64,000 nt of DNA. Origin: Limisphaerales bacterium (lineage in GTDB: Bacteria > Verrucomicrobiota > Verrucomicrobiia > Limisphaerales > AAA164-E04). The stretch is taken from positions 2,766,692 through 2,830,691 of the forward strand of contig OZ251460.1 in NCBI GenBank assembly GCA_965242585.1, written 5' to 3'. The notes beneath the pieces were generated by a model. It did not search any database. It saw only the letters and a program-made list of their open reading frames with translations, and was not told the origin of the DNA. Each line of letters starts with the position of its first letter. Positions within the stretch are counted from its first letter, which is position 1. Positions 1,680-39,099 of the stretch are shown here, in pieces. The position numbers were made by a program, and so were the translations under genes.

Positions 1680-1684
1680 TCTCC

Positions 1685-15093: not shown

Positions 15094-15900
15094 TTAGATT
15101 ATGAGGGATGTGTTTTGGGGGCGTTGTTTGCCGCCATGAACGGATGGCTCGGCGCACCACTTGGCGGCGAGTTGGCGGACGGCATCATAAATATCTTCGC
15201 CAAAATCAAGCCATTCGCAGATTACTTTTTTGTCTAACAATTTACGAGTATCATCTTCATAAGCAATATAAGCAGGCAAGAATCGCTTGTTTCGAAACTG
15301 CTCAAAGATGCGTTTGGCTTGATCCAACTAATCTTTAAAGATTGGCTAGTAGTTGATTTCAAGGATTTGTTCCAAGCGTTCAAAGTAGCGTCTTTGCGGT
15401 TGCGCACAAAGCGGCCGCAAACCCGATTGATAGGGAGGATGTGATTATTAGCACCGGTGATGCATTCATGGAAGATGAGGGCGTTGACAATGACGGCGCA
15501 AGTCGTCGGCGGTTCGATCAGAGGTGCTTTTCCGAACGTCGACTAAATGGATGAGGTCGGTCAAATTGCTGACAGAACCTTTCAGCCAGCCGGTTTTAGG
15601 AAAGCGGTCGTTGTTTGGATAAACGGCGTAATACGACAAATGGGAGGGCTTCTAATGCCTTCTCCATATTGTCGGCCTGCGCTAGCGACCGGATAGCGCG
15701 CGGCGGTGACCGCTTCAATCGGATGCGTCTGGTTGCGAACCTTCAGGCTAACTCGCTCATCGGCTTCTTTTTCGACGTTGGGAGTGGTCGTATTCGGCTT
15801 CGATGATCACCGGCGACCGGCCTTCGCCGGTAATCGAAATGTCCGGCCGTTTGCCAGGTTTTTTTGGAGATAACGTCGGTGTTTTCTATCGGACCATTAC
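15094..15900 (-). pseudogene. Multi-frameshifted relic of a PD-(D/E)xK-type nuclease-like gene
   Basis: No long ORF exists here. Minus-strand pieces in different frames read KRPDISITGEGRSPVIIEAEYDHS (a PD..E.E/K-like core), then NVEKEADERVSLKVRNQTHPIEAVTAARYP, AVIVNALIFHECITG, and finally ORF 15094..15327. It lies directly downstream of the R-M pair. Confidence 0.3.
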
Positions 15901-16095
15901 CATTCGGCAACATTTATGTGAGCAAATTTTTCTAATTCGGTGTTGGCTAATTATTCCGATTGAGTTGGGCAGAGAAAATTCGCAATACTCAGTTACACGT
16001 GTTAAGTCGCCAGTCGAGATATTTGCAACATGTGAAGGAAAAAGAGCGTAAAGATTATCGAAATTTTCTATGGGTGACAATCCAAAGGAGAGACT

Positions 16096-17187
16096 TTATG
16101 TTTGCACGACCTCGTTCCAAGCATCTTTTAACTGGAAACTCACTGACAAATCGCTCTCTAAACCGGAGACATACTTATGCACAAATGCGCTTGTGTCTCG
16201 AGTTAAACGGAGGTAATACTTCAACGTGTGACTAACACCATTTGCTATTAACTGACAACCATGCGCTCGAGCAATTTGTTGAATATCCGATTTAAATTTA
16301 GAATAATCGCCGTGTGGATAAGTTGTTAGAATATAAAACCTTTTAACTGGGGTTTTTTGCAATTTCTCGAAAGAATTCTGAATCAAGCCCGAAGTAATCG
16401 GTATATTATGCTTAATTTCATAGCCTTCAAACAAGGTGTTATCGGAATCTACAATATGCACATCGCCAATCAATTCCGTCCGCCGATCAGCGGTATTATG
16501 GTGTTCGACAGGCAAAACAGCGCAATTGTTATAGCGCCCTACTTCCCGTACCAATACACTTAAAATAGCATGTACTACCAACACCGGCAATCGTGCTACT
16601 CCTTGCAATTGAACGCTATAATGTCGACTTATTCGATCCACTACTTCATCGACAGAAAGATTGACCGGTCGGGAAAGAACAAGATTTACATTGTCGTCTC
16701 TGAATCGAATCAAGCCAATGAATATGGCGATCATGATATTTTCAGCCGACAATCCGTGACATTGCACTCCGTTGACGAGTTTGAGAAATGCATTTTTGAC
16801 CGCAGCCGGCTTCATGTTCCCCGGATAGTGCAAGTCATAAGGCCGGGCTTGCTCCAGTGATCTGGTTAGCCACCCTGAACCGCTCTGCATATGTGGAAAG
16901 CTTTTTTCCTTTAGGAAAGGAGTAACTACTCGCGAGTCTAATCCTCTGCCGCTGAATCCTCCGCTCATTCCCGATTGGTGCAGTCTGATATCCTGGATTG
17001 GATTCATTAGTTTCTTCAGCAACAATGTAGTCAAGACAGCCAGAATGGCCTTGCTTTGTTCCTGATGATCTATAATAATTCGGCAGTATAGATCATAGGG
17101 ATTTGATAGTTTTGGAAGTGTTTTCTGGTTCGAATGTAAAGCCAACGCCCGATTGTACAGTTCACTAATTCTTTGTTTTTCGTTCAT
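16096..17187 (-). CDS. Putative type II restriction endonuclease (cognate to the adjacent methylase)
   Basis: 363-aa ORF starting 39 nt downstream of the methylase stop on the same strand. It is AT-rich. A candidate PD-(D/E)xK core is present in IGDVHIVDSDNTLFEGYEIKH. I recognise no other family signature. Confidence 0.5.
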   Translation of the reverse strand: MNEKQRISELYNRALALHSNQKTLPKLSNPYDLYCRIIIDHQEQSKAILAVLTTLLLKKLMNPIQDIRLHQSGMSGGFSGRGLDSRVVTPFLKEKSFPHMQSGSGWLTRSLEQARPYDLHYPGNMKPAAVKNAFLKLVNGVQCHGLSAENIMIAIFIGLIRFRDDNVNLVLSRPVNLSVDEVVDRISRHYSVQLQGVARLPVLVVHAILSVLVREVGRYNNCAVLPVEHHNTADRRTELIGDVHIVDSDNTLFEGYEIKHNIPITSGLIQNSFEKLQKTPVKRFYILTTYPHGDYSKFKSDIQQIARAHGCQLIANGVSHTLKYYLRLTRDTSAFVHKYVSGLESDLSVSFQLKDAWNEVVQT

Positions 17188-17225
17188 AGTGTCATTTTTT
17201 TGCTATTGGATTCGCAAAATGTGAG

Positions 17226-18296
17226 TCAGAGTAATTTGGGTTGGCCCGGATTTTGAGACATTCGTTCCAAAGCGGCGGCGCAGTAGTTTGGGCTGATGTC
17301 GATTCCCATGCAGCTTCTGTCTTCTATGGAAGCGGCGATCATAGTGGAACCACTGCCCAGATACGGGTCAAGCACCAATCCTTTCGGTGGGCACAGCAGG
17401 CGGATCATCTCCCGGATTATACGAACGGGAAATATTGCCGGGTGACCGTTTCCGGGGAGGTTTTCTACGGGACTTTCAATGATGTCTCGCTTCATTGGTT
17501 GACCGGAGATGCGGATGATGGTAAATCCATCTCGATCGATGTGCATTTTGCGCCCGCCCGCTTGCCCGCCGTAAGCCGGGGCGTGAATGCCTCGGATTTT
17601 CATTCGGAAGCTGTGAATGGCGCCGCTACGAACCTCGTCAATAGCCTGATCTAATGCTGTGTGAGCCATAGCTCGCTCTTTGGAATTTAGGGCGGCAGTT
17701 TTGAGGAGTTTTCTATAGCGGTTTCCTAGTTTGTCTGTGGGAGTGCGTCGGCGAGGCTCTTCTTTGCTTGGTTGAAAGGAGGCTCGGTTATGGTAGTAGT
17801 TAGCGCCAAGGGCGAAGTGAAAGAATGGTTCCGTGCTGTTGGTCAATCGTCGGGTGAATTGGTGGGGCGCCGGGTTTTGTTTTATCCAAGTAACGTCATT
17901 GACAAGCCTTAGGCCGAGCTCGTTGACGGTTCTGAGGGCGAATTGGTAGGGGATGAGTTGCAGGCTTCCGGCAATGATTTTATCGCCTATGTTGTATACG
18001 ATGTTGCCTGTAGGTTTTGTCACTCGTATGACTTCCCCGAGTGTTGCGATAATGTTGTCTAGATATTCGCCGATTGTGTTTTCATTGCCTTGCCCGGAAG
18101 ACGAGTATTCTCGCTGTTGGAAGTAAGGGGGCGAGGTAATGGTTAGGTCAACGAAGTTCGGAGGAAGGTTGGGGAGAACGTCTAAGTTGTCTCCGCAGCT
18201 TATGGTGTATTTTTCCTTTATAGTGTTGGCGGCGGCGGGGTGTGGGTTGTGTTTGGCTGTTTGAGGAGCAATGGGAGGCTTTTTGGTGTAGCGCAT
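17226..18296 (-). CDS. DNA methyltransferase, beta class (motif IV before motif I), likely N4-cytosine or N6-adenine
   Basis: DLTITSPPYFQQREY (motif IV, SPPY) is near the N-terminus. LVLDPYLGSGSTMIAA (motif I) is near the C-terminus. The ATG is at 18294-18296. Confidence 0.85.
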   Translation of the reverse strand: MRYTKKPPIAPQTAKHNPHPAAANTIKEKYTISCGDNLDVLPNLPPNFVDLTITSPPYFQQREYSSSGQGNENTIGEYLDNIIATLGEVIRVTKPTGNIVYNIGDKIIAGSLQLIPYQFALRTVNELGLRLVNDVTWIKQNPAPHQFTRRLTNSTEPFFHFALGANYYHNRASFQPSKEEPRRRTPTDKLGNRYRKLLKTAALNSKERAMAHTALDQAIDEVRSGAIHSFRMKIRGIHAPAYGGQAGGRKMHIDRDGFTIIRISGQPMKRDIIESPVENLPGNGHPAIFPVRIIREMIRLLCPPKGLVLDPYLGSGSTMIAASIEDRSCMGIDISPNYCAAALERMSQNPGQPKLL

Positions 18297-18338
18297 TTTT
18301 CTATTAACACGGTTTATTGCTTTCGTCGTGAGGGAGTT

Positions 18339-20069
18339 TTAAGGGAGTATGGAGGCGTGTAGGCGGTTGTTTTGCGGGAGGTTTTTTTCTTCGAATTCGC
18401 CGCACCAACCTTTGATTTCCGCGTCGTTGAAGATTTTGCCGATGACGCGCCGCAACAGTCCTTTGAGGCTGGCATTTTCGAGTTCGCGCAGGGATCGGAT
18501 GGCTTCTTCTTGGTAGGATTGTAGCAATTCTTCGGCGCGTTGGATGGCGCCAAGTTTTCGGCAGAGGGCTTCGATTTCCTCTGAGTTGGGCGGCTCGGCT
18601 TGCCTTCGCCAGATTTTTTCGAGCAAGGTTTTTTCGTTGCCGTGCGCGTTTTGGTAGGCGATGGCGAGTGGCAGGCTGGGGCGCAGTCCGGCGATGTCGT
18701 TGGTGTCGCTGCCGGCGCTTAGGTCGTTCAAGTCGTCTCGGATTTGGTAGGCGATTCCCAAAGCTTCGCTGTAGCGGGACAAGGTTTTTTGCACTGCTTT
18801 GTATTCTTTGATTCCGGCGGAGATTACTCCCAGTTGCAGGGCGACTTCGAAGGCGGGCGCGGTTTTGCGGCGGAAGATGTCCAGCACGGTTTTGGTGGAA
18901 AGTGGTTCGGGTTGCCGCGCCCAGCATAGTTCCGCTCCTTGTCCTTGGCATAGGCGGCGTTGGCCTTCAGCGGCAACTTGCAGCATCAAGGCGCGTTGTT
19001 CGACGGAGGCGTTGCTGGAGGCCAAGAGCCGATAGCCTTCGCCGATGAGCAGGTCTCCGGCGTTGATGGCCACGGGGACGCCGTGTTCTTCGTGCAGGGT
19101 TTTTTCTCCGTAACGTAGTGCGTCGTTGTCTTCGATGTCGTCGTGGATGAGAGAGGCTTTGTGGAAGCACTCGACGGCGACGCCGATTTTGCGGATGCGG
19201 GGTGGCAAGTCTGCGCCGGGTTCTGCTTGGAGGGATTGGAATGCGGCGGCGGCGAGGAAGGGTCGCCAGCGTTTGCCGGCCCGCATTAGCCAGTTGCGGG
19301 AGAGGATTTCCGTCCGGCCGTCGGCGTTCCCCATAGTGAGGTCTATGGTGGCGGGGCTGAACCAAAATTCGACGTCTTCCCGCAAGTCGCCCAGGTTCAT
19401 TCGGCGGGTGCGGTCGTCGCCGGACAAGTGGATGTAGTCCCAAATCCAATCCAAATCCACGGTGGTGTCGATGCAATCGTCTTGGAGCAGGGGGATGGCC
19501 ACTCCGGGAATGGCCGCCGCTTCCATGTAGGGGAAGGCTCGTTCGAGAACGCTGATGCAGCTGACGCCGACGATGGCCTCGATTTTGCCGGTTTGAATGA
19601 GCGACATCACGATGGCCGATCCTTCGGCAACCAGAACCGCATATCCCAGTCGTTCTGCTTCTGTCTGTAGGTCTTGAATGGAGCATAGGCCGCAGGATTT
19701 GCAGAGCAGTCCGAATTCGTCGAAGGGCGCCGGGCAGCGGCTTTCGACCCGCAGGCACTTTGGCAGGAGGAGCAGGCGGCGATGGTAGGGAACGGCGGCG
19801 AGGGGTTCTCGCCACATCTCGTTGTTGATTAGAACGCCGAGGTAGTCGCGGTAAACGGGATTGAGCTGGTTTTCCCGAATCAGCCGGTCGGCGTGCTTTT
19901 TCAAGTCTTCCACCGGCAGGGGAGGCACCGGGTTCTGCTCGGCCACATAACGGCGGACCGCCAAAAGCGCTTGGTTCCGTTCTTCCGGGGTTTGGGGCAG
20001 GTTTTTCTTGGGCGGCCTGAATTTTTGTGGCGCCGCCGAACGGGGCAGGATTAATTCCGTGGAAGACAT
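18339..20069 (-). CDS. Fusion protein: Cys-rich DUF116-like N-terminal module plus trans-polyprenyl diphosphate synthase
   Basis: The N-terminal half has LLLLPKCLRVESRCPAPFDEFGLLCKSCGLCSI and GVSCISVLERAF. The C-terminal half has both Asp-rich motifs (LIHDDIEDNDALRYG and YQIRDDLNDL). Its start overlaps the upstream radical-SAM gene by 19 nt. Confidence 0.8.
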   Translation of the reverse strand: MSSTELILPRSAAPQKFRPPKKNLPQTPEERNQALLAVRRYVAEQNPVPPLPVEDLKKHADRLIRENQLNPVYRDYLGVLINNEMWREPLAAVPYHRRLLLLPKCLRVESRCPAPFDEFGLLCKSCGLCSIQDLQTEAERLGYAVLVAEGSAIVMSLIQTGKIEAIVGVSCISVLERAFPYMEAAAIPGVAIPLLQDDCIDTTVDLDWIWDYIHLSGDDRTRRMNLGDLREDVEFWFSPATIDLTMGNADGRTEILSRNWLMRAGKRWRPFLAAAAFQSLQAEPGADLPPRIRKIGVAVECFHKASLIHDDIEDNDALRYGEKTLHEEHGVPVAINAGDLLIGEGYRLLASSNASVEQRALMLQVAAEGQRRLCQGQGAELCWARQPEPLSTKTVLDIFRRKTAPAFEVALQLGVISAGIKEYKAVQKTLSRYSEALGIAYQIRDDLNDLSAGSDTNDIAGLRPSLPLAIAYQNAHGNEKTLLEKIWRRQAEPPNSEEIEALCRKLGAIQRAEELLQSYQEEAIRSLRELENASLKGLLRRVIGKIFNDAEIKGWCGEFEEKNLPQNNRLHASILP

Positions 20070-21328
20070 TTGAGTTCTTGAGGTGAGGTTTTACGATTTC
20101 GTGGCAACTGGCTTGCGGGCGCATTCGCCGTCAAATTCCGATAGGCTTGAAAGTCGTTGAACCAAAAGCGTTTCGCCCAGCGATACATCCAGTGTCGTTC
20201 GGGAATCTCTTCGCCGGGAAGCCATTGGCTGAAGCGCGGTTCCATTGCTTCCAGTTCTCGCATGGCGGTTCCCCGGACGGTGGTATCTTTGGCGCCGTGT
20301 TTCTTCACCAGCGACTTGACCAAGTCCGGCCGTTCCAACACAACACAACCCCGCGTGGCTTCGGCGGATAGTTTGCGGAAGTCGGACAAGAATGCCGAAT
20401 CGCGGATGGTTTCGTAGATGCCCCGACGGTCGTGTATGGAATCGGCGGCAAATTGGATGATGGGACACGGTTCGATGTCGCCTCGCGGGCTGACGTGATG
20501 GCTGACTCCGTTGGACATAGGACACAAGGCCCGCCCTTGGTCGTCGTAGTAGGCGTCAATGATTCCGATCGGCATCTTCGCCCGCATTTCCACAATGAAG
20601 CGTCGGACGTCGATCAACTGCTGTCGTGTCAAGCCCAGTTGGTCGTTCCGCTCAGGACCTACCGGACGATAGCTGTGAAACCAAACATAATGAACGCCGC
20701 GGCGGATTAATTCTTCAAGCCAGGCTTCTTGAAGCAGGTCGTCAATGTTTGATTGGCAGACGCTGGTGGCCACGCCGGTCAGCAGTTTGTGTCGGAGAGC
20801 GTTTTCCAATCCGCGAAGCGTTTGGTTTAGGACGCCCTTTTTGCCTCGTCGTTGGTCGCTGACCGTTTCACTGCCTTCGATGCTGATCAGCGGAGTGGCG
20901 TTTCCCAATGCCCGCAGCCGGGTCGCCGCTTTGTCGCTAATAAACTGGCCGTTGGTGAAAATCTGAAAGTAGCAATCCGGGTGCGCAGCCAGAAGGTCGA
21001 ACAACTCCGAGTGCAGAAACGGCTCTCCGCCCAGAATTCCGAAGAAGACGTTGCCGTGTTTTTTGGCCTCGCCAATTGTTTGATTCATGGTTTTCAGATC
21101 TAATTGACTGCGGGGCGCCGTGACGTCCACCCAACAACCTTGGCAACGAAGGTTGCAACTGTTGAGGATGGAAAGGTAAAGAAACGGAGGAAAATACTCG
21201 CCTTTCTTGAGCCGTCGTTTGAACCGCTCCACAGAAAGCATCCCGCGGACGCCGAAGTGCCAGGCGAATTTCCACAGACACTTTGCGTCCGCGGTGCGCA
21301 GGATGCGAAAGGCAAGTTGAGGCAACAT
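20051..21328 (-). CDS. Radical SAM protein (with C-terminal auxiliary Cys-rich region)
   Basis: CX3CX2C motif in LSILNSCNLRCQGCWVD, then GGEPFLH. A downstream Cys stretch, CPMSNGVSHHVSPRGDIEPCP, resembles a twitch/SPASM-type segment. Confidence 0.85.
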   Translation of the reverse strand: MLPQLAFRILRTADAKCLWKFAWHFGVRGMLSVERFKRRLKKGEYFPPFLYLSILNSCNLRCQGCWVDVTAPRSQLDLKTMNQTIGEAKKHGNVFFGILGGEPFLHSELFDLLAAHPDCYFQIFTNGQFISDKAATRLRALGNATPLISIEGSETVSDQRRGKKGVLNQTLRGLENALRHKLLTGVATSVCQSNIDDLLQEAWLEELIRRGVHYVWFHSYRPVGPERNDQLGLTRQQLIDVRRFIVEMRAKMPIGIIDAYYDDQGRALCPMSNGVSHHVSPRGDIEPCPIIQFAADSIHDRRGIYETIRDSAFLSDFRKLSAEATRGCVVLERPDLVKSLVKKHGAKDTTVRGTAMRELEAMEPRFSQWLPGEEIPERHWMYRWAKRFWFNDFQAYRNLTANAPASQLPRNRKTSPQELKCLPRN

Positions 21329-21369
21329 AGGCGGAATTTATCTTGCGGTTCTGGGTTTTTGCAATGGAT

Positions 21370-21894
21370 TCACGCGGAGCGCCGTTTCAGCCAGAGATCG
21401 GCGGCCGATTCCGCCGCGCGCAGGCCGGCGGCGATTTTTCTCAAGTCGATGGTGCGGTCGCGCCAAGAAAACTGCAACACTTCGGGGTCTAAACTTCGCA
21501 GGAAAACGTCCTGCCGATACGCGGAGGTGGATCCTCGAGGCATGATGTTCATGCCGATAAAGTGAAAGTGGTCTAAGCCATCCAGCCAGAGGCGGAACTG
21601 CGCGGCGCCAGATTCAGCAAAGGCGGCCAAACCGGAGGTTTTCAAGGCCGAGTCTTCGGGGATTTTTAGCGCTTTGCGCAGAGCTTCGCTGTCTTCGGCG
21701 GCATCGGACGGGACGGCCGGCCAAAGAAACTGCGCCGTTTGATGCGCCCGATCCAGCAGGGCGTGGACGTAGAAAAAAGTCTTTTCCAAGTCCATGCCGT
21801 TCAAACCGGCCCGCAAACTTTGCCACGCAATTTTGCCAAACCGGCATTGCTGGCGAACTTCTTCCACGATTTTGGCGAGGCGTTGCTGCTCCAT
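21370..21894 (-). CDS. Hypothetical protein (about 174 aa)
   Basis: Lies in ORF 21370..22296, but that ORF's N-terminal 134 codons overlap the upstream ferredoxin gene out of frame. The ATG at 21894 (MEQQRLAKIVEEV) lies 5 nt after that gene's stop. I recognise no motif. Confidence 0.5.
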   Translation of the reverse strand: MEQQRLAKIVEEVRQQCRFGKIAWQSLRAGLNGMDLEKTFFYVHALLDRAHQTAQFLWPAVPSDAAEDSEALRKALKIPEDSALKTSGLAAFAESGAAQFRLWLDGLDHFHFIGMNIMPRGSTSAYRQDVFLRSLDPEVLQFSWRDRTIDLRKIAAGLRAAESAADLWLKRRSA

Positions 21895-21899
21895 ACGGG

Positions 21900-22775
21900 T
21901 CAAATTTTCTCTTCCGGCAGATGGTTGGCCGCCATCCGGGCGGCTTCCGCTTTGGCGGACGCTTCTTCGGCGCGGCGCTGAATTTCTTCTGGCGACGGAA
22001 GCGACATCAACACTTCTTCCGGCACGTCTCCTGCTTGCGCCAACTTTACGAGGCATTTTTTCCGCTCGTTGAGGGCTTTGTCGGGGTTTCGCTCTTTGGA
22101 AAACCGGGACTTCGCCTTCTCGCTCCGGTCTCGCAACATTTGATACACGTCGCCGCCGAGAAGGGAAGAGATGTCGATTTTCATTTTCTCGCGATTCAAG
22201 TCGGCGGGGTTGACGCGGTCGCCGTTGATTGGCCCGCTCCGATATTTGGGAAACATGATCGCCGCTTCCGGGCATACCCGCGAACAAGCCGGGCAATTAG
22301 TCTTGCAACTGTCGTTGTTTTGCACTTGCAGCCGGTTGTCGCCATCCACGCCGTAAACGCCGAACAAACAAAAACTAAGGCACTGCATGCAGTTGGTGCA
22401 ACGCTCGTAGTCGATTACCGGAAACCAAGGCTTCCAAGCGCCGTGATGAAAGGCGCCCAGCTCTTCCCGCTTCGAGCGGACTATGGACGCAACGGTTTCA
22501 GGGTTTTGATCGCCGATGTCCGCCGCGCCCGCTTCCGCCGCCTTGGCGCCTTCTGAAACAAAGGTCGGCGGCACGCCATCTTGGAATCTGCCCAGCACAA
22601 AAAGCGCCGACCGTCCATCCGGCGCCATCGCAGACCGTTCATTCGTCCGCGTCACGGCAAACCCCTCCGCCAACAGCGCCGACACGGTTTGGTAACAAAA
22701 CTCCGCGTCCAGCGGCTTGCTCCCTTTGCCTTCGTAGAGAACTACCCGCAACAACCGACTCTCAACCAGACTCAT
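21900..22775 (-). CDS. Ferredoxin-type 2x[4Fe-4S] domain protein with charged C-terminal tail
   Basis: Cys clusters CTNCMQCLSFC and CKTNCPACSRVCPEAAI. The ATG at 22773-22775 overlaps the upstream ORF by 14 nt. Confidence 0.75.
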   Translation of the reverse strand: MSLVESRLLRVVLYEGKGSKPLDAEFCYQTVSALLAEGFAVTRTNERSAMAPDGRSALFVLGRFQDGVPPTFVSEGAKAAEAGAADIGDQNPETVASIVRSKREELGAFHHGAWKPWFPVIDYERCTNCMQCLSFCLFGVYGVDGDNRLQVQNNDSCKTNCPACSRVCPEAAIMFPKYRSGPINGDRVNPADLNREKMKIDISSLLGGDVYQMLRDRSEKAKSRFSKERNPDKALNERKKCLVKLAQAGDVPEEVLMSLPSPEEIQRRAEEASAKAEAARMAANHLPEEKI

Positions 22776-23175
22776 GCGCTTCCTTTCCTGAATTATTGGA
22801 ACCCGCTGTCGGCGGGCGGTTGTCTTCCGGCAAGTTCGGACGCAGAGGACCGCTCAGCAAAGCGGCCGCCGCTTCCTCCGCCGACTCCGTCCGCATGTTG
22901 ACGACTTGCGTTTGCTCCGGTGGCAATGCGGCGTTTCCCGCCGCAAACAACCATTTTACTGCGCGGGGAAAGCAGGCGGCAATTTTTACCGGACTTCCGC
23001 CCGCCAAGCGCAACAGCATCGGGTCTTTCCGGGCAGACATCTCGCACAAGTCGGCCACGGCGTCAAAAGAGACGCCCGAGTCGCACAACTTCCGAAGCAC
23101 GTTTTCCTTCGTGCTTCGGGGAACCACTTGGGCGTAAGCGCAGTTGCAATACAAAATTCTCGTGTCTTCAGCCAT
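22762..23175 (-). CDS. Small Cys-containing hypothetical protein
   Basis: MAEDTRILYCNCAYAQVVP..LCDSGVSFDAVADLCEM..IAACFPRAV. It is translationally coupled to the ferredoxin gene. Confidence 0.5.
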   Translation of the reverse strand: MAEDTRILYCNCAYAQVVPRSTKENVLRKLCDSGVSFDAVADLCEMSARKDPMLLRLAGGSPVKIAACFPRAVKWLFAAGNAALPPEQTQVVNMRTESAEEAAAALLSGPLRPNLPEDNRPPTAGSNNSGKEAHESG

Positions 23176-23238
23176 GTGCCGTGCGGGACAATATGAAGGA
23201 AAAATCGCCGGATGCCAATCTTTTGCTTCGCTTTGGCG

Positions 23239-24396
23239 TCAAAGACTTGCGGAAACCAAACGATCTCGATGCGTCGGCTTCGGCCTGCTCGGCCGAAATC
23301 GCTCTAAATCTTCCACCTCCAGCGCGATCCCGCACTTTTGCCCAACCGTTTTCAAAGCGGAGCGTGCAATGTTTTCAATCGTTTCCGGCGCCGTCTCCGC
23401 CCGCAGATTCAAAATTAACTGCCCCGATTGCATCGCGCCTTCCAACTGTTGTCCCAGCTCGGGGACGACGTCGTTCCGCACTACGTGGATCGCGGCCAGA
23501 TTATTCCAATCGGCGGCCGGCGCCAAAGTTATCTTGAGATGGGCAACTTCAGCCGCTGCATTCCGCAACCGTCCCTGCATCTCTTCCGCGATTTCCCGCA
23601 ACAAATTGTTGCCGTCAAATTCTTCCCCGGAGCGAACCGCAATCGTTGCGTTCAGCCAACCCAACAACGCCTCTCCATCCGCGTAAACGTCGTAGTCTAG
23701 TTCCATCGTCGGCTCGTCGGGTTGGACTTCGCCGGTCACAATTTCGAACCACTCCCTCAAGCCCGATCCCTGCCGGGCAGAGACGGCCAGCACTCGCGCC
23801 CGCGGAAATTCTTCTCCCAAACGTTCCTTCAACCGTTGCAAAGCGCCGGCCTCCAGCAAGTCGGTTTTGTTCACCACAATCAGGTTGGCTTCCTCCAGCT
23901 GTTTCCGATAGATATAGACGACCTTTGAGGAAAAACAGCCTCCATCGGCCAAGCCCAACACTCGCTGCGCCCGAATCGGATCCACAAGCGTCGAAAGCGG
24001 CGCAATCTGAAAATTGTCGCCGTAAATGCGCCGCAGCGGATACGCCACCGTTGCCGCCAGATCCGTGCAACTGCCCACTGGCTCCGCCACAAACACTTCC
24101 GGCCGAGTCGACTCAGTCAAACGCTTGGCCGCCTCCAACAATGAGTCGAATCGGCAGCAAAAACAGCCCCCCGGAATCTCCTCCGTGGCGTATCCCGCAG
24201 CGCGCAAGGCCGCGGTGTCCACCAGTCCGCTTCCTTGATCGTTGGTAATCAGTCCCGCCTTGCATCCGCGGGCGGCCAGATATTTTGCCAATTGAGACAC
24301 CGCCGTTGTCTTGCCGGCGCCCAGAAAGCCCCCAATCATAATATACCGCGCCGCCGGACTTGCCGAAGAATGCCCCCAATCCGTCATCGTCGTCAT
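23239..24396 (-). CDS. CobW/HypB/UreG-class (COG0523-like) P-loop GTPase, putative metallochaperone
   Basis: Walker A IGGFLGAGKTTAV, a GGCFCC motif (the CxCC metal site typical of the CobW family), and VVNKTDLL (an NKxD-like motif). Its start lies 3 nt after the stop of the upstream GcvH-like ORF. Confidence 0.85.
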   Translation of the reverse strand: MTTMTDWGHSSASPAARYIMIGGFLGAGKTTAVSQLAKYLAARGCKAGLITNDQGSGLVDTAALRAAGYATEEIPGGCFCCRFDSLLEAAKRLTESTRPEVFVAEPVGSCTDLAATVAYPLRRIYGDNFQIAPLSTLVDPIRAQRVLGLADGGCFSSKVVYIYRKQLEEANLIVVNKTDLLEAGALQRLKERLGEEFPRARVLAVSARQGSGLREWFEIVTGEVQPDEPTMELDYDVYADGEALLGWLNATIAVRSGEEFDGNNLLREIAEEMQGRLRNAAAEVAHLKITLAPAADWNNLAAIHVVRNDVVPELGQQLEGAMQSGQLILNLRAETAPETIENIARSALKTVGQKCGIALEVEDLERFRPSRPKPTHRDRLVSASL

Positions 24397-24399
24397 TGC

Positions 24400-24873
24400 T
24401 TACTGCTTTTCCTCTAACTTTTGCTTTTCCAGCATCTTGTCGATAGTCGCGTCCAAAACGCCCGAATACGCCGCCGCGTCCAAACACCGCGCGTCCGGTT
24501 CGCCTCGAACCTCATATAGCCAGCCTTCTCCATAAGGTTGGCTCGATACCAGCGAAATCTCCTCCCGCAAGCGCGGATTGCTCCGCACAAACTCCCCCCG
24601 AGCAATGGCGTAAACGTCCGAAATCGCCTTAAATCCTTCCACCCAGCCCAAAATCTGTCCCGGCTCCACCGCCGCTCCCGCCTTCGCTTCAAACTTATGA
24701 TCTACCATCTCCCCCAACATCCGCGTGGCAAACTTCGTGAACCCCACACGACAAAGTCCTTCGCCAAGTTGCCGCGCCCAACTGTGCGATGGACTGAACA
24801 CCGCCTCCGCCGGCAGATGCGTCGCAAAATGAGAGCGCTTGTAAAAAATCGTTTTGCCAGACTTCAAAGCCAC
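24400..24873 (-). CDS. Glycine-cleavage H-protein-like (lipoyl/biotinyl-attachment fold) protein
   Basis: The C-terminal 157 codons of ORF 24400..25968 read ...HSWARQLGEGLCRVGFTKFA...GQILGWVEGFKAISDVYAI...GEGWLYEV, a GcvH-like pattern with a candidate lipoyl Lys in EGFKA. There is no in-frame ATG. GTG at 24873 (or TTG two codons later) is the proposed start, and it is uncertain. Confidence 0.65.
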   Translation of the reverse strand: MALKSGKTIFYKRSHFATHLPAEAVFSPSHSWARQLGEGLCRVGFTKFATRMLGEMVDHKFEAKAGAAVEPGQILGWVEGFKAISDVYAIARGEFVRSNPRLREEISLVSSQPYGEGWLYEVRGEPDARCLDAAAYSGVLDATIDKMLEKQKLEEKQ

Positions 24874-25011
24874 TCTTCCAAAAACTACTCGCCATTCTGC
24901 AAAAAGGGAAAGCCCAATCTTGCTTCCCCTCGATGATTTCCGACGCCTCCCCAAACAAAAAGTCTTGATTTCAGAACCAAAATTCGCAATACAAAACCCC
25001 CAAAAAGAACC

Positions 25012-25344
25012 ATGCCAACATACGAATATCTCTGCGGCAAATGCGGCCGTGAATTCGAAGTCTTCCAATCCATGAAAGACAAAGCCCTCGCCATCTGCCC
25101 AAAAACCGTTTGCCGCCAAAAACCCTGGGGACAAGGCCCGGTCAAACGCGCCATCAGCGCCGGCGCCGGACTCCTCTTCAAAGGAAGCGGCTTTTACATC
25201 ACCGACTACCGAAGCGAAGGCTATAAAAAAGCCGCCAAAAAAGACTCCGAAACCGCCCAACCCAAAACCGCTGCCAAAAAATCCAAATCCGGCAAAAAAG
25301 CCGCCCCGTCCGCCGCCAAAAAAACCAACGTTTCCAATGCCTAA
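25012..25344 (+). CDS. FmdB-family zinc-ribbon protein
   Basis: MPTYEYLCGKCGREFEVFQSM..ICPK..C, the CxxC...CxxC FmdB signature, followed by a Lys/Ala-rich tail. Confidence 0.85.
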   Translation: MPTYEYLCGKCGREFEVFQSMKDKALAICPKTVCRQKPWGQGPVKRAISAGAGLLFKGSGFYITDYRSEGYKKAAKKDSETAQPKTAAKKSKSGKKAAPSAAKKTNVSNA

Positions 25345-26734
25345 TCCCAACTTCGGCCGGCACCGCTTCTTTCCCGCCTCCCGCCGTGCCGCCGCAATAA
25401 TCTTACCTCTACTCCCCGCGCTTTGCCTAGCCTTACCCCCATCCGCCGCCGCCGACTTCCGCACCATCGAAAGCCGCTCCGGCCAATTCCTCGTCCGCTG
25501 CCGCGAACCCTTCTCCCCCCCCTCTCTGCGCGAAGATGAAAAAGCCGCCGGCCTCATCACCCTCACCCCCGAACTCGCCGCCATTTCCGCCGAGCGCATC
25601 AAAGAAAGCCTCTTGCAACTTCTCGGCGCCCCAGACCGCTGGCGCGGTAAAATCCGCTTCCACTTCCACCCCGGCAAACCCAACCCCGACCTCTTCCAAG
25701 TCCGCTCCGCCCGCTTCTCCAACGGTTGGACATACCAAGTTTCCCTCAGCCCCAAAATCCGCCGCCAAACATGGCTCCGAAACTGCGTCGCCCTCCTGCT
25801 CCTCGAAATAGGCAACCGCCTTGCCGGCGAACAATCCGTCGAAATCCCCTTCTGGCTCGTCGACGGCATCGCCACAGAACTGCGACACTCCGCCCCCCTC
25901 GAGCTCAGCCCCAGCCACGCCGAACGCCTCCGACTCGGCGGTGCCAACTCCAAACCCGTCTTCCCCAATCAACTCTACCAAGACGCCCTCCTCTCCACCC
26001 GCCGCTGGCTCTCCCAAAACCCGCCAGCCAGCGCCTCCGAACTCTTCTTCCCCGAAGACCAACACTTGCGCGGCAGCAAAAAACGCCTCTTCGCACACTC
26101 CGCTCACCTCTTCTTTCGCCGCCTCCTCGACCTCCGCGCCGGCAAAGCCAGCCTCCGCCAGTTCCTCAGCGCCCTCCCCACACGCCTCAACTGGCAACAA
26201 GCCTTCTTCCCCAGCTTCGAACCCCACTTCCAAAAAATGCTCGACGTCGAAAAATGGTGGGCCGTCACCCTAACCGACTTCCTCACAAACCCCTACTCCG
26301 CCCCGCTCGATCCCCAAAAATTTGAAATCGGCTCCCGCCCCCCCAAAGAAACCCTCAACCAACTCGACCAACTCTTCTCCCTGCCCGCCCTCGTCGGACA
26401 CAAAAGAAACCAAATCACCCAACGCAAACGCTTCTCCCTCCAACAAGCCATCGCCCAATGGGACTACGCCGACCAAAAACCAGCTCTTGAACAAATCGTC
26501 CACCGCCTCGACATCCTCGCCATATACGCCCATCCCCAACTCACCCCCCTCATCCGCGACTATCAAAAAACCCTCCACAACTACCTTTCCCAACGCAACC
26601 AATCCGGCCGCCAACTCTCCACCAAACGCCCCCTTCAAATGCGCCGCCGACCCCAACACATCGCCCAAAAAACCCAACAAAAACTCAACCAACTAGACGC
26701 CCAACGCCGCCAACTCTCCACCTCGCCAACATAA
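25337..26734 (+). CDS. Hypothetical secreted protein (465 aa)
   Basis: The ATG overlaps the FmdB stop (ATGCCTAA, an 8-nt overlap). It has a signal-like N-terminus, RRAAAIILPLLPALCLALPPSAAAD. The coding strand is strongly G-poor, so every other frame is also open. The frame was chosen by the coupling and the signal peptide. Confidence 0.6.
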   Translation: MPNPNFGRHRFFPASRRAAAIILPLLPALCLALPPSAAADFRTIESRSGQFLVRCREPFSPPSLREDEKAAGLITLTPELAAISAERIKESLLQLLGAPDRWRGKIRFHFHPGKPNPDLFQVRSARFSNGWTYQVSLSPKIRRQTWLRNCVALLLLEIGNRLAGEQSVEIPFWLVDGIATELRHSAPLELSPSHAERLRLGGANSKPVFPNQLYQDALLSTRRWLSQNPPASASELFFPEDQHLRGSKKRLFAHSAHLFFRRLLDLRAGKASLRQFLSALPTRLNWQQAFFPSFEPHFQKMLDVEKWWAVTLTDFLTNPYSAPLDPQKFEIGSRPPKETLNQLDQLFSLPALVGHKRNQITQRKRFSLQQAIAQWDYADQKPALEQIVHRLDILAIYAHPQLTPLIRDYQKTLHNYLSQRNQSGRQLSTKRPLQMRRRPQHIAQKTQQKLNQLDAQRRQLSTSPT

Positions 26735-30364: not shown

Positions 30365-33300
30365 TTAGCGAGCCGGGGTTCCTAAACCGACTAAGTCGCC
30401 GGCACTGGTTGCGCCATTCACTCTCCCTTGCGCCGAACTGGACTCGATAGAACCACCAACATTCCACCCCACGAAGACGCTAACGCCGATAACGCCGCTC
30501 ACTTCTGCGTTGACGAAGCTGTGCGCAATGTTCCCAAAGTTATGTCCAACTAGGCCGCCGACGCTGTTCGAGCCCACCACTTGCCCGCTCACCGAACAAT
30601 GGCTGATGCTTCCTTGACTCAACCCGGCGATGGCGCCGACCCAGTTCACACCTTTTATATCCACCTCTTCTAATCCTAAGCCAACCACTTGCCCGCGATT
30701 GCCAATAGCTCCAAACAAGCCACTGGGTTTCCCGGCAAACCGGGAGGCATCGCTCTGGTCTTGGAACAAGCCGACAATCTTATGTTCGTTGCCTTTTAAC
30801 ACGGCTTGGAAGGGGTGGGAGAACAGGCCGATGGACTGCCAGCCGTGGCCCTTGTTCCAAAAGGCGTCTGCTTCCTCGGCGTGGCCGTTGTGGTTGGTAT
30901 CGAAGTCAAGATCGCTGGTGAGTTCGTAGCCTTGGGCTGGGGCGTTGTTGGGAATGCCCATGTTGGCAATGGCGCTGGGGAAGGCTTGGCTGTAAGCGTC
31001 GGCGAATGCTTCTTGGTCCGGTTGGCCGTCGCCGTCCAAATCCCAACGAATGGCGTTCAGTTGGGCTAGGTTGCTAACCTCAATCAAGCCGTCATCGTCC
31101 GCATCGTAATCGGTGGGAGGCACCTGCACTTGTTGAACAGGTTGGCGGTCGGTTGGTGGTTCGGGGGTTTCTTTCTCTGCTTCCACGACGGTGTGAGCAA
31201 GGGTGACTAAGACAGTCCCCGCATTGTTGTTGGCGATGAAGCCTTCGCTGCCGGGAATGGAATGCCGAATGGAAGCCTGCTCGTTGGTGTCCGCCGCGGT
31301 TGCGCCGGCAGTCACGGTCACGGTTTGGTAGGTCTGCCAAGTGTTTTGGTTGAAGACCAATCTATTAGGATTGACGGTGATTCCAGTGTGCGTCGTGGCT
31401 AGGTTGACCACCATTTCTCTCTCTTGGGAAGAAGTGGACCGAACTTGGTAAGTGGTAGAGCCGCTTTCGCTCAAGGACAAACTGGTTGGTCTGAACATGA
31501 GCGAGGACGAAACCGATCCGCCGTTTTGCGAGAGGTGCGGGACGATTATCGGAGTCACGCCGCCGCCGTTGTTTACGTTGACTGGGGGAGGGAGCGGTTC
31601 TTGGTCGTCGTTGACAATTTCGATGCGGGCGGTGCTGGGCTGGATAACGGCGTTAGTAGGGTTGCTGAGGAGGAGATTGAAGTATTCGTTGGGTTCAAAG
31701 TCGGTGTCTCCCAAGATGGGAATGGAGATGGTTTGGGTGAGGTTGGTAGTGAAGGCGGGGAAGGTGATCGTGCCTTCAGTGGTGACGTAGTCTTCACCGG
31801 CGGTGGCCGTGCCGTCGTCTTGGGTGTCGTAGTCGACGGTGACGTCTTTGTCGGGAACGCCATTCAACAATTGAACATTGAGCGAGGCGTCTGTCCTGCC
31901 TTCGTCGCCTTCAAGGATGGAAAGAAAAGCAGTCTGCGAAAAATTGACGATGAGAGGCGGCAGAGGTTCAAGGTTGGCTTCGATGTATATTCGTAGCGTA
32001 TCGTTAGCTTCGTCGAGGTGGGCATTTACTGGATTGCTGAGGTCAAGGCGAAAATATTCGAGCTCTTCATGTTGGTTGTCATCCAGAATGGAAACCGAAA
32101 AGGTTTGAACAGTGGTGCCGGCGGGGAAAGTGAGGGTGCCGCTGGTGCCGACGTAGTCTTGGCCGGCTTCGGCCGAGCCGTCTTGGGTGGCGTAGTCGAC
32201 GGTGACAGGGAGTTGGTAAGCATGACTCAATTGAACTTGAAGGTCAACAGTGGTTGCGTCTCCCTCGCGTACGAACAAGCGCGAATCTGATCTAAACTTG
32301 ACGATTAGCGAGGATGGCGGAGGTGGCGGAGAATCATCATCTCGAATGTAGACGGAGGCCAAATTAGAACCAGACAAAACAGCGTTTTCTGGGGATTGTA
32401 ATTGTAAACGAAATACTTCTCGGGTTCTGCCTTCATTTAAAGAGTCGTCCAGAATGGTAACCGGGATTCTTTGAACGAGGTTGGTCGTGTCGGCAGGAAA
32501 AATAAGCGTGCCTTCAGTGTCGACGTAGTCTTGGCCGGCGGTGGCTGTGTAATCTTGCGTGGAGTAGCCGACGGTAACACGACGGGAGATAGATTCGCTC
32601 AAGGAAACTGAAATAAGAAGTGTTCCTTGATCTTCCGTAACACTATGATAAGTATTCTCAAAAGAAACCGATGGATAATGAATTAAATATCCATACTGAC
32701 TTGCAAAATCATTATCGGGGATTCTATCAAATATTCCCACCGGCAAGGAAGTAAGTGCGTTGTTGCCGCTAAGATCCAGCGTTCGCAGGTTCACCAGCTT
32801 GTCAAATATTCTCACCGGCAAGGAAGTAAGTTCGTTGTCGCTGAGATCCAGCGTTCGCAGGTTCACCAGCTTGTCAAATATTCTCACCGGCAAAGAAGAT
32901 ATCTGAAGGTTATCGCTAAGATCCAGTGTTCGCAGGTTCACCAGATTGTCGAATATCCTCGTAGGCAATTCGTCCCCTCTCAACGAGTTGCTGCTAAGAT
33001 CCAGTGTTTGTAGGTTAGTGAGGCTGTTAAATATCCCCAACGGAAGGCGTATAATTTCATCAGTGTGACCGCTAAGATCCAGGGTTTGCAGGTTGGTGAG
33101 GCGGTTAAATATCCCCGAAGGCAAGGATTTATCATCTGGCAGATCATCAATTACAGGTATCAGCTTTAGACTTTGCAGCTCGGGGAGTTCGTCGTTGACA
33201 ACCTTCATCACATTCGTGAAAGAGGAATCGGTTCCGTCGTATTTAAATTGGAAAGACAGTTCTAAACTGCGAACGTTGGTGAGGCTGTTAAAGTCGCCTG

Positions 33301-33607
33301 CTTGGAGAAAGTTCACAGTAAGACCCATACGGGAGACACTACTGAGCTGGCCGAGGTCGGTGACTTGGTCGTATTCGGTGATGCCGGGCAGTTGACTTAG
33401 GATGGCGTCGGCCACTGCTGTTGTCCGGCCGTGGAGGACGGAGTCGGGGTCGTCCACGGTGCCGTCCGGCGGCGGAGTGGTTTGCGCCGTTGATGTTTGC
33501 TGAGCAAGGATAGCGGCCAGCATGCCGATGGCTAGCAACGAATGGATTCGAGTTTGGTGCGTATTGGTCATGATCGTGTCTCCAAAAGGAATGTTAAATG
33601 TTTTCAT
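30365..33607 (-). CDS. Large secreted surface protein: LRR region, 3 Calx-beta domains, GLUG-motif C-terminal region
   Basis: Lies in ORF 30365..33652. The likely start is the ATG at 33607 or 33571 (MTNTHQTRIHSLLAIGMLAAILAQQTSTAQ signal). It has LRRs (LTNLQTLDLSGH, LVNLRTLDLSDNELTSLP). Three Calx-beta-like units are present (TATAGQDYVDTEGTLIFPA, SAEAGQDYVGTSGTLTFPA, TATAGEDYVTTEGTITFPA). GLUG-like repeats are present (GLFGAIGNRGQVVGLGL, VGGLVGHNFGNIAHS). Confidence 0.85.
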   Translation of the reverse strand: MKTFNIPFGDTIMTNTHQTRIHSLLAIGMLAAILAQQTSTAQTTPPPDGTVDDPDSVLHGRTTAVADAILSQLPGITEYDQVTDLGQLSSVSRMGLTVNFLQAGDFNSLTNVRSLELSFQFKYDGTDSSFTNVMKVVNDELPELQSLKLIPVIDDLPDDKSLPSGIFNRLTNLQTLDLSGHTDEIIRLPLGIFNSLTNLQTLDLSSNSLRGDELPTRIFDNLVNLRTLDLSDNLQISSLPVRIFDKLVNLRTLDLSDNELTSLPVRIFDKLVNLRTLDLSGNNALTSLPVGIFDRIPDNDFASQYGYLIHYPSVSFENTYHSVTEDQGTLLISVSLSESISRRVTVGYSTQDYTATAGQDYVDTEGTLIFPADTTNLVQRIPVTILDDSLNEGRTREVFRLQLQSPENAVLSGSNLASVYIRDDDSPPPPPSSLIVKFRSDSRLFVREGDATTVDLQVQLSHAYQLPVTVDYATQDGSAEAGQDYVGTSGTLTFPAGTTVQTFSVSILDDNQHEELEYFRLDLSNPVNAHLDEANDTLRIYIEANLEPLPPLIVNFSQTAFLSILEGDEGRTDASLNVQLLNGVPDKDVTVDYDTQDDGTATAGEDYVTTEGTITFPAFTTNLTQTISIPILGDTDFEPNEYFNLLLSNPTNAVIQPSTARIEIVNDDQEPLPPPVNVNNGGGVTPIIVPHLSQNGGSVSSSLMFRPTSLSLSESGSTTYQVRSTSSQEREMVVNLATTHTGITVNPNRLVFNQNTWQTYQTVTVTAGATAADTNEQASIRHSIPGSEGFIANNNAGTVLVTLAHTVVEAEKETPEPPTDRQPVQQVQVPPTDYDADDDGLIEVSNLAQLNAIRWDLDGDGQPDQEAFADAYSQAFPSAIANMGIPNNAPAQGYELTSDLDFDTNHNGHAEEADAFWNKGHGWQSIGLFSHPFQAVLKGNEHKIVGLFQDQSDASRFAGKPSGLFGAIGNRGQVVGLGLEEVDIKGVNWVGAIAGLSQGSISHCSVSGQVVGSNSVGGLVGHNFGNIAHSFVNAEVSGVIGVSVFVGWNVGGSIESSSAQGRVNGATSAGDLVGLGTPAR
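32731..32950 (-). repeat. Near-identical 72-75-nt tandem repeats encoding consecutive LRR units
   Basis: The unit atattctcaccggcaaggaagtaagt..gatccagcgttcgcaggttcaccagcttgtcaa recurs at 32731, 32806 and 32878 with few mismatches. More diverged copies continue to about 33130. Confidence 0.85.
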
Positions 33608-33694
33608 AGCAACTCCATATTTCTTCTGATTTCTAAACTTCTCAACTTCCACTAAAATTTCTTGCGTCGTTTTTTCTTTGGTTCCGGGATTTTT

Positions 33695-38182: not shown

Positions 38183-39099
38183 AAGATTTTGAAAATGCGG
38201 AATATGAACTTGTGAACAAAACTTTGGGTGAAGTTTGGCCGCCAAATGGGATGGTGTCAAGATTTTTTCATCTTTTTTGCGAAAGGCGGCGGATGGTGCG
38301 CGATTCTGGAGAAGAGAAGTCACTCGTTCTCGGGGGAGGGGGGGCAGAAGTTGGCCTTGGCGGGTTTTGGCCGTCTTTCGCGTTTCTGCAAATAAATTCC
38401 TCATAAATCCCCTCAAATTTTCAGCATTTTGACCATTTGTTACCGTCCAAAAAAAGGAAAGATAAATTGGATTGAAACAGAACGCAAGCTTCTTTCCAAG
38501 TTTTTTTGAGGAGGGAATTTTTGGGTTCTTTTTCAACGGTTTTGGCGGTTGCTTGCAGGATTTGTTGCGGGTTGCTGAATTTATGCGAAGGGCGGTTGGG
38601 TTGGATAGGTTTTTGCGGAGGATTTCTTCGGCTGTTTTTTGTCAACGAGCCGTTGGCTTTGGAAAATTTTGGGATTGCCCAGCAATCGCTCGGCAAAAGT
38701 ACGTAAGTGGGTGGGATTGAGTTCTCTTTTCGCGCCGAACGCATTTTTCCAGCAAAAATCTACCTTTTCAGCAGACGATAATGGCGCGGCCGCAGCATTG
38801 GTCTCCCATGGAAGCAACCGAGAAAATCAAGCTCGGCGAACTCCGGGCAATCCAGGATCGTTGGCGAGTTGGGGAGGCGTCAAGGAAGAGAAACCGACGC
38901 CAAAAAATGGCCGAGCAAGACCGGACTATTGGAGAGTGGAAGAAGATGGACACAGATATTCGTGGCAACGGAAAAGTAGGCCTGAATGCTGGGTTGGTCT
39001 TTTTAGAAAAGTGAAAGAACTGGTTCTAGGAGGTAATTGCGGTATAAACAAGCAACTGCTTTATTAGGCGCTTTCTTCATTCATTATTTTTCGCTAATA

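Follow-up and report, generated by a model that had tools for sequence, protein, structure and literature searches.

What does a radical S-adenosylmethionine (SAM) enzyme do when its gene runs into that of a polyprenyl diphosphate synthase fused to a cysteine-rich DUF116 domain? Two such genes lie on the minus strand of a 64,000-nucleotide stretch of a Limisphaerales genome (contig OZ251460.1, positions 2,766,692 to 2,830,691; hereafter the window). An earlier note on this DNA had read them as an isoprenoid-modifying pair, in which the synthase makes a prenyl chain that is handed to the radical SAM enzyme. We consider it about an even chance (a probability of roughly 0.5) that the two proteins form the front part of a terpenoid cluster of Verrucomicrobiota and Planctomycetota, in which an oxygen-independent pathway would start from a precursor other than squalene and would include a radical step on an isoprenoid. 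In related loci the cluster ends in an enzyme resembling squalene-hopene cyclase (SHC), and therefore the pair probably helps to make a cyclic terpenoid lipid.

The radical SAM gene (20051..21328, minus strand) is an open reading frame (ORF) for 425 residues that matches PF04055. The fusion gene (18339..20069, minus strand) encodes 576 residues and matches PF01976 (DUF116) and PF00348 (polyprenyl synthase). The end of the former and the start of the latter share 19 nt (20051..20069, minus strand), as the earlier note had described, and all three Pfam families that it named were matched. Every peptide motif it quoted is present in the two ORFs, and the quoted cysteines are invariant in alignments. 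The 19-nt overlap recurs in two sister contigs (L164 and L165, 94% identical), and is replaced by a gap of 11-21 nt in more distant relatives. Homologue searches returned thousands of full-length relatives of each protein, at 70-94% identity and with matching architecture; all fusion relatives share the arrangement of DUF116 followed by synthase, and the start of the fusion lines up with the starts of its relatives. Thus, the two overlapping ORFs are real, selected genes and not chance reading frames.

The cluster in related loci and its cyclase end

We compared 160 related loci, comprising the best 80 of at least 586 genome loci (one genome per species) and 80 metagenome loci seeded with distant relatives. 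Cluster proteins were mapped by tblastn, linkage was counted only in loci with at least 3.5 kb downstream, and ORF families were built from non-overlapping ORFs under a strict coverage rule. The 80 genome loci show 59-79% identity and are labelled mostly as Verrucomicrobiota, with a few Planctomycetota and some implausible labels of metagenome-assembled genomes (MAGs), such as Akkermansia muciniphila, Bifidobacterium, Klebsiella and Haliangiales, which suggest mixed bins or mislabelling. A single MAG with the label Akkermansia muciniphila carries, on contigs L009 and L030, two complete, differing copies of the cluster.

The recurring set consists of a small cysteine-rich protein (s137 in the window), a 2x[4Fe-4S] ferredoxin, the radical SAM enzyme, the DUF116::synthase fusion, an alpha/alpha-toroid protein of 290 residues and an SHC-like cyclase of 600 residues. 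Counted on the same strand, the fusion gene starts no further than 3 kb downstream of the radical SAM gene at 22 of 54 genome loci and at 29 of 36 metagenome loci (51/90). In the clade that is less than 56% identical this holds for 13 of 15 loci, and the linkage reaches down to 44% identity. The co-conservation of the two genes anticipated by the earlier note is thus confirmed at the level of the locus, the 44-50% identical clade included. Its description of a pair captured the linkage but was incomplete, since the unit really comprises six to nine genes, of which the two upstream iron-sulfur (Fe-S) proteins are the most persistent. s137 and the ferredoxin remain beside the radical SAM gene through changes of gene order, and do so without the fusion in L056, L058, L066, L067 and L074. 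At least three gene orders retain the linkage: s137-ferredoxin-radical SAM-fusion; radical SAM-s137-ferredoxin-fusion, found in Verrucomicrobiales (L050, L052, L055 and L072) and in L142; and a divergent arrangement (L124). A 10.5-Mb Limisphaerales chromosome and a 3.3-Mb contig show the upstream order of the window followed, after the fusion gene, by a gene for a toroid protein of 285-291 residues (PF00432).

GcvH-like and CobW-type genes are found only in the closer clade. A class-V aminotransferase (NifS-like, resembling cysteine desulfurases) is encoded in 16 loci, for example at L083:15662-16801, beside the GcvH-like and CobW-type genes or at the cyclase end. The 44-50% identical clade keeps the series s137-ferredoxin-radical SAM-fusion-toroid-cyclase, with no GcvH-like, CobW-type or NifS-like gene nearby. 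Neither squalene synthase nor an HpnCDE-type family is recurrent among the 160 loci. An MMPL (HpnN-like) transporter gene downstream in L166 was considered as a cluster member and rejected, as it is conserved in no other locus. In a distant clade (L091, L093, L106, L122, L131 and others), tandem paralogues of a PQQ/BamB-type beta-propeller lie upstream of the ferredoxin gene, and some of the distant-clade loci also hold a MacB/FtsX-type ABC permease; the recurrence of these genes may reflect only the relatedness of the contigs. In one marine Verrucomicrobiales locus (L167:10132-12287), the fusion gene is followed by a 97-residue ORF, a different radical SAM gene (236 bits against TrsS, cutoff 490, and 183 bits against Tes, cutoff 450) and an LGT gene.

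The toroid gene has one position only, immediately after the fusion gene, with the SHC-like gene usually next. Both lie beside the fusion gene in 13 to 16 full-flank loci across two scans. The toroid and cyclase genes always come after the fusion, which links at least this gene to a terpenoid module, and the isoprenoid context claimed in the earlier note finds support in the homologue of class II terpene cyclases that follows it in relatives. This SHC-like protein of about 600 residues contains both the N-terminal and the C-terminal SHC domains (PF13249 and PF13243). It scores 133 bits against TIGR01787 (cutoff 323) and 108.8 bits against the hopene cyclase model TIGR01507 (cutoff 431.1), and the DxDD-type motif PDADDSAG is conserved in 33 sequences. 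The cyclase very probably belongs to the clade called 'SHC-like' in two earlier studies (PMC7306690 and PMC12324236). The first of these (Santana-Molina et al. 2020, PMC7306690) defines such proteins, reports that the planctomycete members keep the catalytic residues, and takes their genomic context to suggest precursors other than squalene. The second, a 2025 preprint (PMC12324236), describes the clade as of unknown function, places it in the PVC group (Planctomycetota, Verrucomicrobiota, Chlamydiota), the FCB group, Spirochaetota and Acidobacteriota, and makes it the sister group of epoxy-polyprenyl cyclases, whose substrates are head-to-tail.

The profile of the toroid protein resembles the beta subunits of protein prenyltransferases and the class II cyclases alike. 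By eye, its PDLLSTATAL corresponds to PDADDSAGAL of the cyclase with the acid residues gone, and it has no invariant cysteine or histidine able to bind zinc. Judged from these residues, the toroid protein is therefore probably non-catalytic, or catalytic in another way.

The radical SAM enzyme and the fusion protein

The radical SAM protein matches PF04055 with 47.4 bits (cutoff 29.5). Its CX3CX2C motif, CNLRCQGC (C58, C62 and C65; 21134-21157), is invariant or nearly so in alignments, and within GGEPFLH (G100-H106) the GGE (100-102) is invariant. The segment CPMSNGVSHHVSPRGDIEPCP spans C269 to C288 (20462-20524). In the auxiliary pattern C269-x13-G283-x4-C288, these three residues, like C328, vary little or not at all in the alignments, and C191 is invariant within the close clade. 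With three to four auxiliary cysteines, the enzyme appears to be twitch-like, with room for one auxiliary cluster, and not to carry the full SPASM motif. The AlphaFold2 model (predicted local distance difference test, pLDDT, 81) contains a partial TIM barrel and a C-terminal domain of a hairpin plus a helix, preceded by confident N-terminal helices (residues 2-12 and 15-41). Amphipathic segments are conserved at both termini. Foldseek matched the model to radical SAM structures with a probability of 1.0, most closely to SkfB, SuiB, BlsE and anSME, and also to viperin, MoaA, PqqE and NifB, with TM-scores of about 0.4-0.55 and an identity of 15-20%.

The protein reaches no curated NCBIfam family, HpnH, MqnE and Tes included. 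Generic SPASM/twitch maturases and NirJ/Ahb enzymes come highest, scoring about 57 bits where the cutoffs lie at 265-650. The MqnE, MqnC and Tes models are not among the best 25 of 48 NCBIfam matches, the weakest of which scores 33 bits, and a relative (P0256) scores 38 bits against the Tes model (cutoff 450). Among 1.84 billion representatives of clusters at 50% identity, we found about eleven full-length relatives at 35-51% identity and, past those, a family about 30% identical that carries an N-terminal extension. None of the distant relatives that were scanned reaches a curated NCBIfam family.

As the earlier note had claimed, the fusion joins a cysteine-rich module to a complete synthase with both aspartate-rich motifs. 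The DUF116 domain (19434..19847, minus strand; residues 75-212) matches PF01976 with 117.5 bits (cutoff 25) over 137 of 155 profile positions, and follows a soluble leader of 75 residues. The motifs of the fusion ORF include LLLLPKCL, CPAPFDEFGLLCKSCGLC and GVSCISVLERAF. Seven cysteines of the domain are invariant in the alignment of relatives (C105, C112, C123-x2-C126-x2-C129, C171 and C199), and the pattern persists in two fusions that are only 40-48% identical (L091 and L121). Searched alone against the PDB sequences, the domain returned nothing at E <= 10. DUF116, also known as COG1852 or arCOG02078, has been predicted to be a flavodoxin-like, cysteine-rich electron-transfer domain (PMC5898192), and the seven cysteines here are consistent with a redox (Fe-S) module on the synthase.

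The trans-prenyl diphosphate synthase domain (18570..19289, minus strand; residues 261-500) matches PF00348 with 152.5 bits. Its first aspartate-rich motif (FARM) is DDIED (residues 310-314; 19128-19142, minus strand) and its second (SARM) is DDLND (residues 445-449; 18723-18737, minus strand). Invariant in the fusion alignment are GKRWRP (265-270), DDIED, KTAPAFE (402-408) and DDLxD (445-449). The solved structures closest to the domain are the archaeal geranylgeranyl diphosphate (GGPP) synthase 1WY0 and bacterial farnesyl diphosphate (FPP) synthases. The best NCBIfam matches are short-chain synthases, all of them under their cutoffs, and no specific equivalog was reached (best 130 against 450 bits for an encapsulin cargo type, 109 against 468 for IdsA and 102 against 500 for GGPP synthase). 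Around the FARM the sequence is ECFHKASLIHDD, with alanine at position -5, where 1WY0 has tyrosine, and phenylalanine at -8. The same two residues are kept in both of the 40-48% identical fusions that were inspected, ECFHKASLVHDD (L091) and ESFHKASLVHDD (L121).

These features allow a pathway to be sketched. The synthase domain would make an all-trans prenyl diphosphate; by sequence it stands nearest to C15-C20 enzymes, but alanine occupies position -5, where a residue would limit the length. The precursor of the DxDD cyclase would be such a regular head-to-tail chain and not squalene. The chain may be handed from the synthase to the radical SAM enzyme, which would carry one twitch-type auxiliary cluster, would be reduced by its own module of s137 and 2x[4Fe-4S] ferredoxin, and could be held at the membrane surface by the amphipathic helices of its termini. 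There it would perform an oxygen-independent step on the isoprenoid, either an activation of a C-H bond or an addition to an olefin. The seven-cysteine DUF116 domain would serve the synthase as an attached redox (Fe-S) module.

Upstream neighbours and the missing cyclase half

The two genes close a run of seven on the minus strand, which encodes, in order, a GcvH-like protein, a CobW-type GTPase, s137, the ferredoxin protein, a 173-residue ORF, the radical SAM enzyme and the fusion. The successive spacings are 3, 63, -14, 5, 44 and -19 nt, and the run may form one operon. A promoter and terminator scan of positions 15800-25400 gave counts at the level of shuffled sequence and provided no operon boundary.

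s137 (22762..23175, minus strand) has 137 residues with five conserved cysteines (YCNC...C...ADLC...AAC), a pattern conserved in 48 sequences, and no Pfam or NCBIfam match. The gene of the ferredoxin protein (21900..22775, minus strand; 291 residues) overlaps that of s137 by 14 nt. The protein has a central 2x[4Fe-4S] domain of the PorD/KorD type and matches Fer4_7, Fer4_6 and related Pfam models, with TIGR02179 as the best NCBIfam match. A natural protein of 675 residues (P0245, 49% identical) unites s137, the ferredoxin core and the radical SAM enzyme in a single polypeptide, with s137 at the N-terminus, and the ferredoxin protein of the window is 52% identical to its residues 121-246. This natural fusion ties s137 and the ferredoxin directly to the radical SAM enzyme, which s137 probably serves as an Fe-S or redox partner. 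Between the ferredoxin and radical SAM genes lies a lineage-specific ORF of 173 residues (21370..21894, minus strand) that has no Pfam match. It is 55% identical to a 176-residue gene product of L001, and its homologues were found only in L004, L006, L022 and L037, a few loci of Limisphaerales type.

Further upstream, the CobW/COG0523-type G3E GTPase (23239..24396, minus strand; 385 residues; PF02492, 84.8 bits) has a conserved GCFCC (CxCC) motif and is syntenic in relatives. The GcvH-like protein (24400..24873, minus strand; about 155 residues with an approximate start; PF01597, 73 bits) is 76% identical to that of L001. It keeps the lipoyl-lysine position (EGFKA), whose lysine does not vary in 32 of 32 relatives. 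Beyond this run, a divergent Zn_ribbon_8 (FmdB-type) protein and a 465-residue protein of no known family are encoded on the plus strand (25012-26734), syntenic with the cluster in L001, L002, L164 and L166.

On the other side, the fusion gene is followed by an insert of low GC content (16096..18296, minus strand; 0.46 against 0.57 in the flanks), which occupies the exact position of the toroid gene of relatives. It encodes an N6/N4 DNA methylase (17226-18296, minus strand; PF01555) and a 363-residue ORF without Pfam match, whose C-terminal part (16102-16575) is 76% identical to a separate 159-residue gene product of L166. The 94% identical contigs L164 and L165 have the same insert, and the 84% identical L166 still has the toroid gene there. 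Thus, in this lineage a restriction-modification-like element forms the 3' boundary of the cluster, and its presence accounts for the missing cyclase half at the locus; the toroid and cyclase genes may be located in another part of the genome or may have been lost. The radical SAM, fusion, s137 and ferredoxin genes of the window are 55-79% identical to and collinear with those of L001, whose cluster is complete except for the SHC-like gene. The window contains no NifS-like gene.

Elsewhere in the window, an RseP-like M50 protease gene (171-1679) is followed by IspG/GcpE (1685-3490, 601 residues). IspG is an Fe-S enzyme of the MEP isoprenoid pathway; the two genes (171-3490) lie 15 kb from the locus and their arrangement looks ordinary. 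Very large ORFs of 1095, 1613 and 1684 residues are found at 30365-38536 (minus strand) and 44893-49947 (plus strand).

Weighing the readings and comparison with known systems

Several observations weigh against the terpenoid reading. No member of the cluster has a known product, and within the 64-kb window a tblastn search (E <= 10) detected no credible homologue or remnant of the toroid or SHC-like gene. The best structural relatives of the radical SAM enzyme are mostly protein- or peptide-modifying enzymes, together with NifB. In the AlphaFold2 model of the whole fusion, residues 93-217 have pLDDT values below 50, from a shallow alignment in which all sequences are more than 68% identical. 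The GcvH-like, CobW-type and NifS-like genes of the closer clade are not needed by a simple lipid pathway. In about 40% of the full-flank loci (for example L008, L010, L020, L025, L051, L062-64, L070 and L080), the radical SAM gene stands among unrelated housekeeping genes with no fusion, toroid or cyclase gene within 10 kb. Conversely, in marine Verrucomicrobiales the fusion gene follows sdhCAB-like genes and is accompanied by none of the other cluster genes, the radical SAM, toroid and cyclase genes included.

Some of these observations can be read in favour of a maturase. The radical SAM enzyme would then act on DUF116 or on another protein of the cluster, and would build or insert a special metal-sulfur cofactor, or a protein modification, that the synthase needs. 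Its partners would be s137 and the ferredoxin, which the closer clade supplements with a NifS-like cysteine desulfurase, a GcvH-like carrier that bears the lysine and the CobW-type GTPase. This logic resembles that of NifB, or of HydE/HydG/HydF plus the H-protein, in metallocofactor assembly. The nearest folds, those of SPASM/twitch protein-modifying enzymes with NifB among the Foldseek matches, are consistent with it, as are the synteny of the CxCC-bearing G3E GTPase and the invariant-lysine GcvH-like protein, the class-V aminotransferase adjoining their genes in 16 loci, the overlap of the radical SAM and fusion genes, and the invariance of the seven cysteines in a DUF116 domain that is almost unchanged across Verrucomicrobiota. 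We take a maturase seriously but nevertheless regard it as unlikely, given that the 44-50% identical clade keeps the core cluster without the GcvH-like, CobW-type and NifS-like genes, that the radical SAM gene is often unlinked from the fusion, and that the amphipathic termini of the model suggest an enzyme of the membrane surface. Moreover, the neighbours of stand-alone archaeal DUF116 genes are sulfite reductase and an ArsA-type ATPase, and not a radical SAM enzyme of this kind (PMC5898192). The separation of the two genes in many genomes speaks for another account, in which the fusion is a housekeeping prenyl synthase (for example for quinone side chains or the supply of FPP and GGPP), the radical SAM enzyme with its ferredoxins has a separate housekeeping role, and the gene order is merely inherited. 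Both proteins are strongly conserved (60-80% identity between phyla), the sdhCAB-like genes that precede the fusion in marine Verrucomicrobiales resemble a quinone-using succinate dehydrogenase/fumarate reductase, and the lineage of the window lost the toroid gene from the locus with both genes still intact. This account is an equally serious rival and improbable to a similar degree, since the adjacency outlives reordering and reaches 44% identity, the spacing is tight or overlapping, and the toroid and cyclase genes always come after the fusion.

The earlier note had also been reminded of HpnH by the N-terminal layout of the radical SAM enzyme, which raises the reading of a divergent HpnH (adenosylhopene transferase) at a hopanoid side-chain locus. 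A basic, amphipathic leader does precede the CX3CX2C motif, a weak match to the HpnH model begins in this leader (E = 1.6e-10), and the cluster of relatives contains a cyclase homologue. However, the protein scores 40.5 bits against TIGR03470 (cutoff 225.05), below at least ten unrelated SPASM maturase models, and its relatives score 34-39 bits; the cyclase lies under the hopene cyclase cutoff (108.8 against 431.1 bits), and squalene synthase and HpnCDE-type families do not recur in the 160 loci. The resemblance was thus not upheld and membership in HpnH is rejected, leaving a hopanoid side-chain locus very improbable. As an analogy, the radical addition to a terpenoid olefin is one of several possible chemistries for the enzyme.

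Parts of the cluster have been described. The fusion of DUF116 with a polyprenyl synthetase was noted in 2015 as Psta_0175 of Pirellula staleyi (Makarova et al., PMC5898192), and the cyclase context was flagged in 2020 (PMC7306690). The architecture, for which the earlier note knew of no described pathway, had thus been described in part, but no function, product or mechanism has been established. A preprint on Bipolaricaulota (10.1101/2025.11.21.689855) lists a cluster in which a DUF116 gene adjoins IspH, SHC, HpnH and a polyprenyl synthetase, a second but weak association of DUF116 with terpenoid clusters. Literature searches found no functional study of DUF116/COG1852, or of a radical SAM enzyme and polyprenyl compounds in PVC bacteria, and full-text searches found no paper that links the radical SAM enzyme, DUF116 or these ferredoxins to the SHC-like clade. 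The accessible parts of the main texts of PMC7306690 and PMC12324236 do not mention the radical SAM enzyme, the ferredoxin module, DUF116 or the natural fusion; some of this gene context may be drawn in supplementary figure S10 of the former.

The related loci show SHC-like cyclases travelling with a DUF116-bearing synthase, a degenerate toroid protein, a radical SAM enzyme and a two-protein ferredoxin module. This provides a concrete minimal gene set for the problem of the SHC-like proteins, and predicts a regular polyprenyl precursor and one oxygen-independent radical step. Under the terpenoid reading, DUF116 would for the first time gain a biochemical context, the family having lacked a function since the 1990s. 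A membrane terpenoid as the product would have a bearing on the hopanoid-free membranes of two large environmental phyla and on the interpretation of terpane biomarkers. More tentatively, and with the odds rather against it, PVC bacteria could possess a third polycyclic membrane terpenoid beside hopanoids and sterols, made independently of oxygen from a non-squalene precursor by an Fe-S-bearing synthase and a ferredoxin-driven radical SAM enzyme and folded by the SHC-like cyclase. In that case, an unassigned geological biomarker could derive from the product, and the radical SAM enzyme and DUF116 would each perform isoprenoid chemistry that has not been described. If the maturase account is right instead, the interest moves to a new system of Fe-S or cofactor assembly.

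Comparison with known systems places the cluster closest to several that it resembles only in part. Like the hopanoid (hpn) clusters, it combines a gene for the supply of prenyl chains, a class II (DxDD) beta-gamma cyclase and a radical SAM enzyme with an amphipathic N-terminus, and its product is presumably a membrane lipid. Unlike them, it draws each component from another family, has no squalene synthase, and adds two Fe-S proteins, DUF116 on the synthase and a toroid protein that appears catalytically degenerate. With the SHC-like clade, the cyclase of relatives shares its nature as a divergent SHC homologue of 550-700 residues in PVC bacteria, with the catalytic motif kept and a non-squalene context, but no member of this clade is encoded in the window. 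The epoxy-polyprenyl cyclase pathways (Lon15 of longestin and AtoE of the atolypenes) and the sesquarterpene pathway of Bacillus (HepS/HepT, YtpB and SqhC) likewise use a dedicated synthase, a head-to-tail chain and a class II cyclase. They belong to Actinomycetes and Bacilli and activate the chain with an oxygen-dependent epoxidase or an enzyme of the class I type, whereas the sole tailoring candidate in these PVC bacteria is an oxygen-independent radical SAM enzyme with its ferredoxins.

The individual domains show a similar mixture. Stand-alone archaeal DUF116 proteins share the Pfam family and the cysteine pattern, including CxxCxxC (PMC5898192), but have two N-terminal transmembrane helices and other neighbours, in contrast to the soluble leader and the terpenoid and radical SAM context of the fused form. 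The twitch/SPASM enzymes (SkfB, SuiB, BlsE, anSME, MoaA and NifB) have in common with the radical SAM enzyme the fold, the CX3CX2C and GGE motifs and a C-terminal CX13GX4C hairpin with one further cysteine; the enzyme of the window differs in having three to four auxiliary cysteines in place of the seven-cysteine SPASM set, and in its unique amphipathic segments at the N- and C-termini. Taken together, the description best supported by these comparisons is a terpenoid cluster that combines a class II cyclase with a radical SAM tailoring enzyme, some parts of which were already on record.

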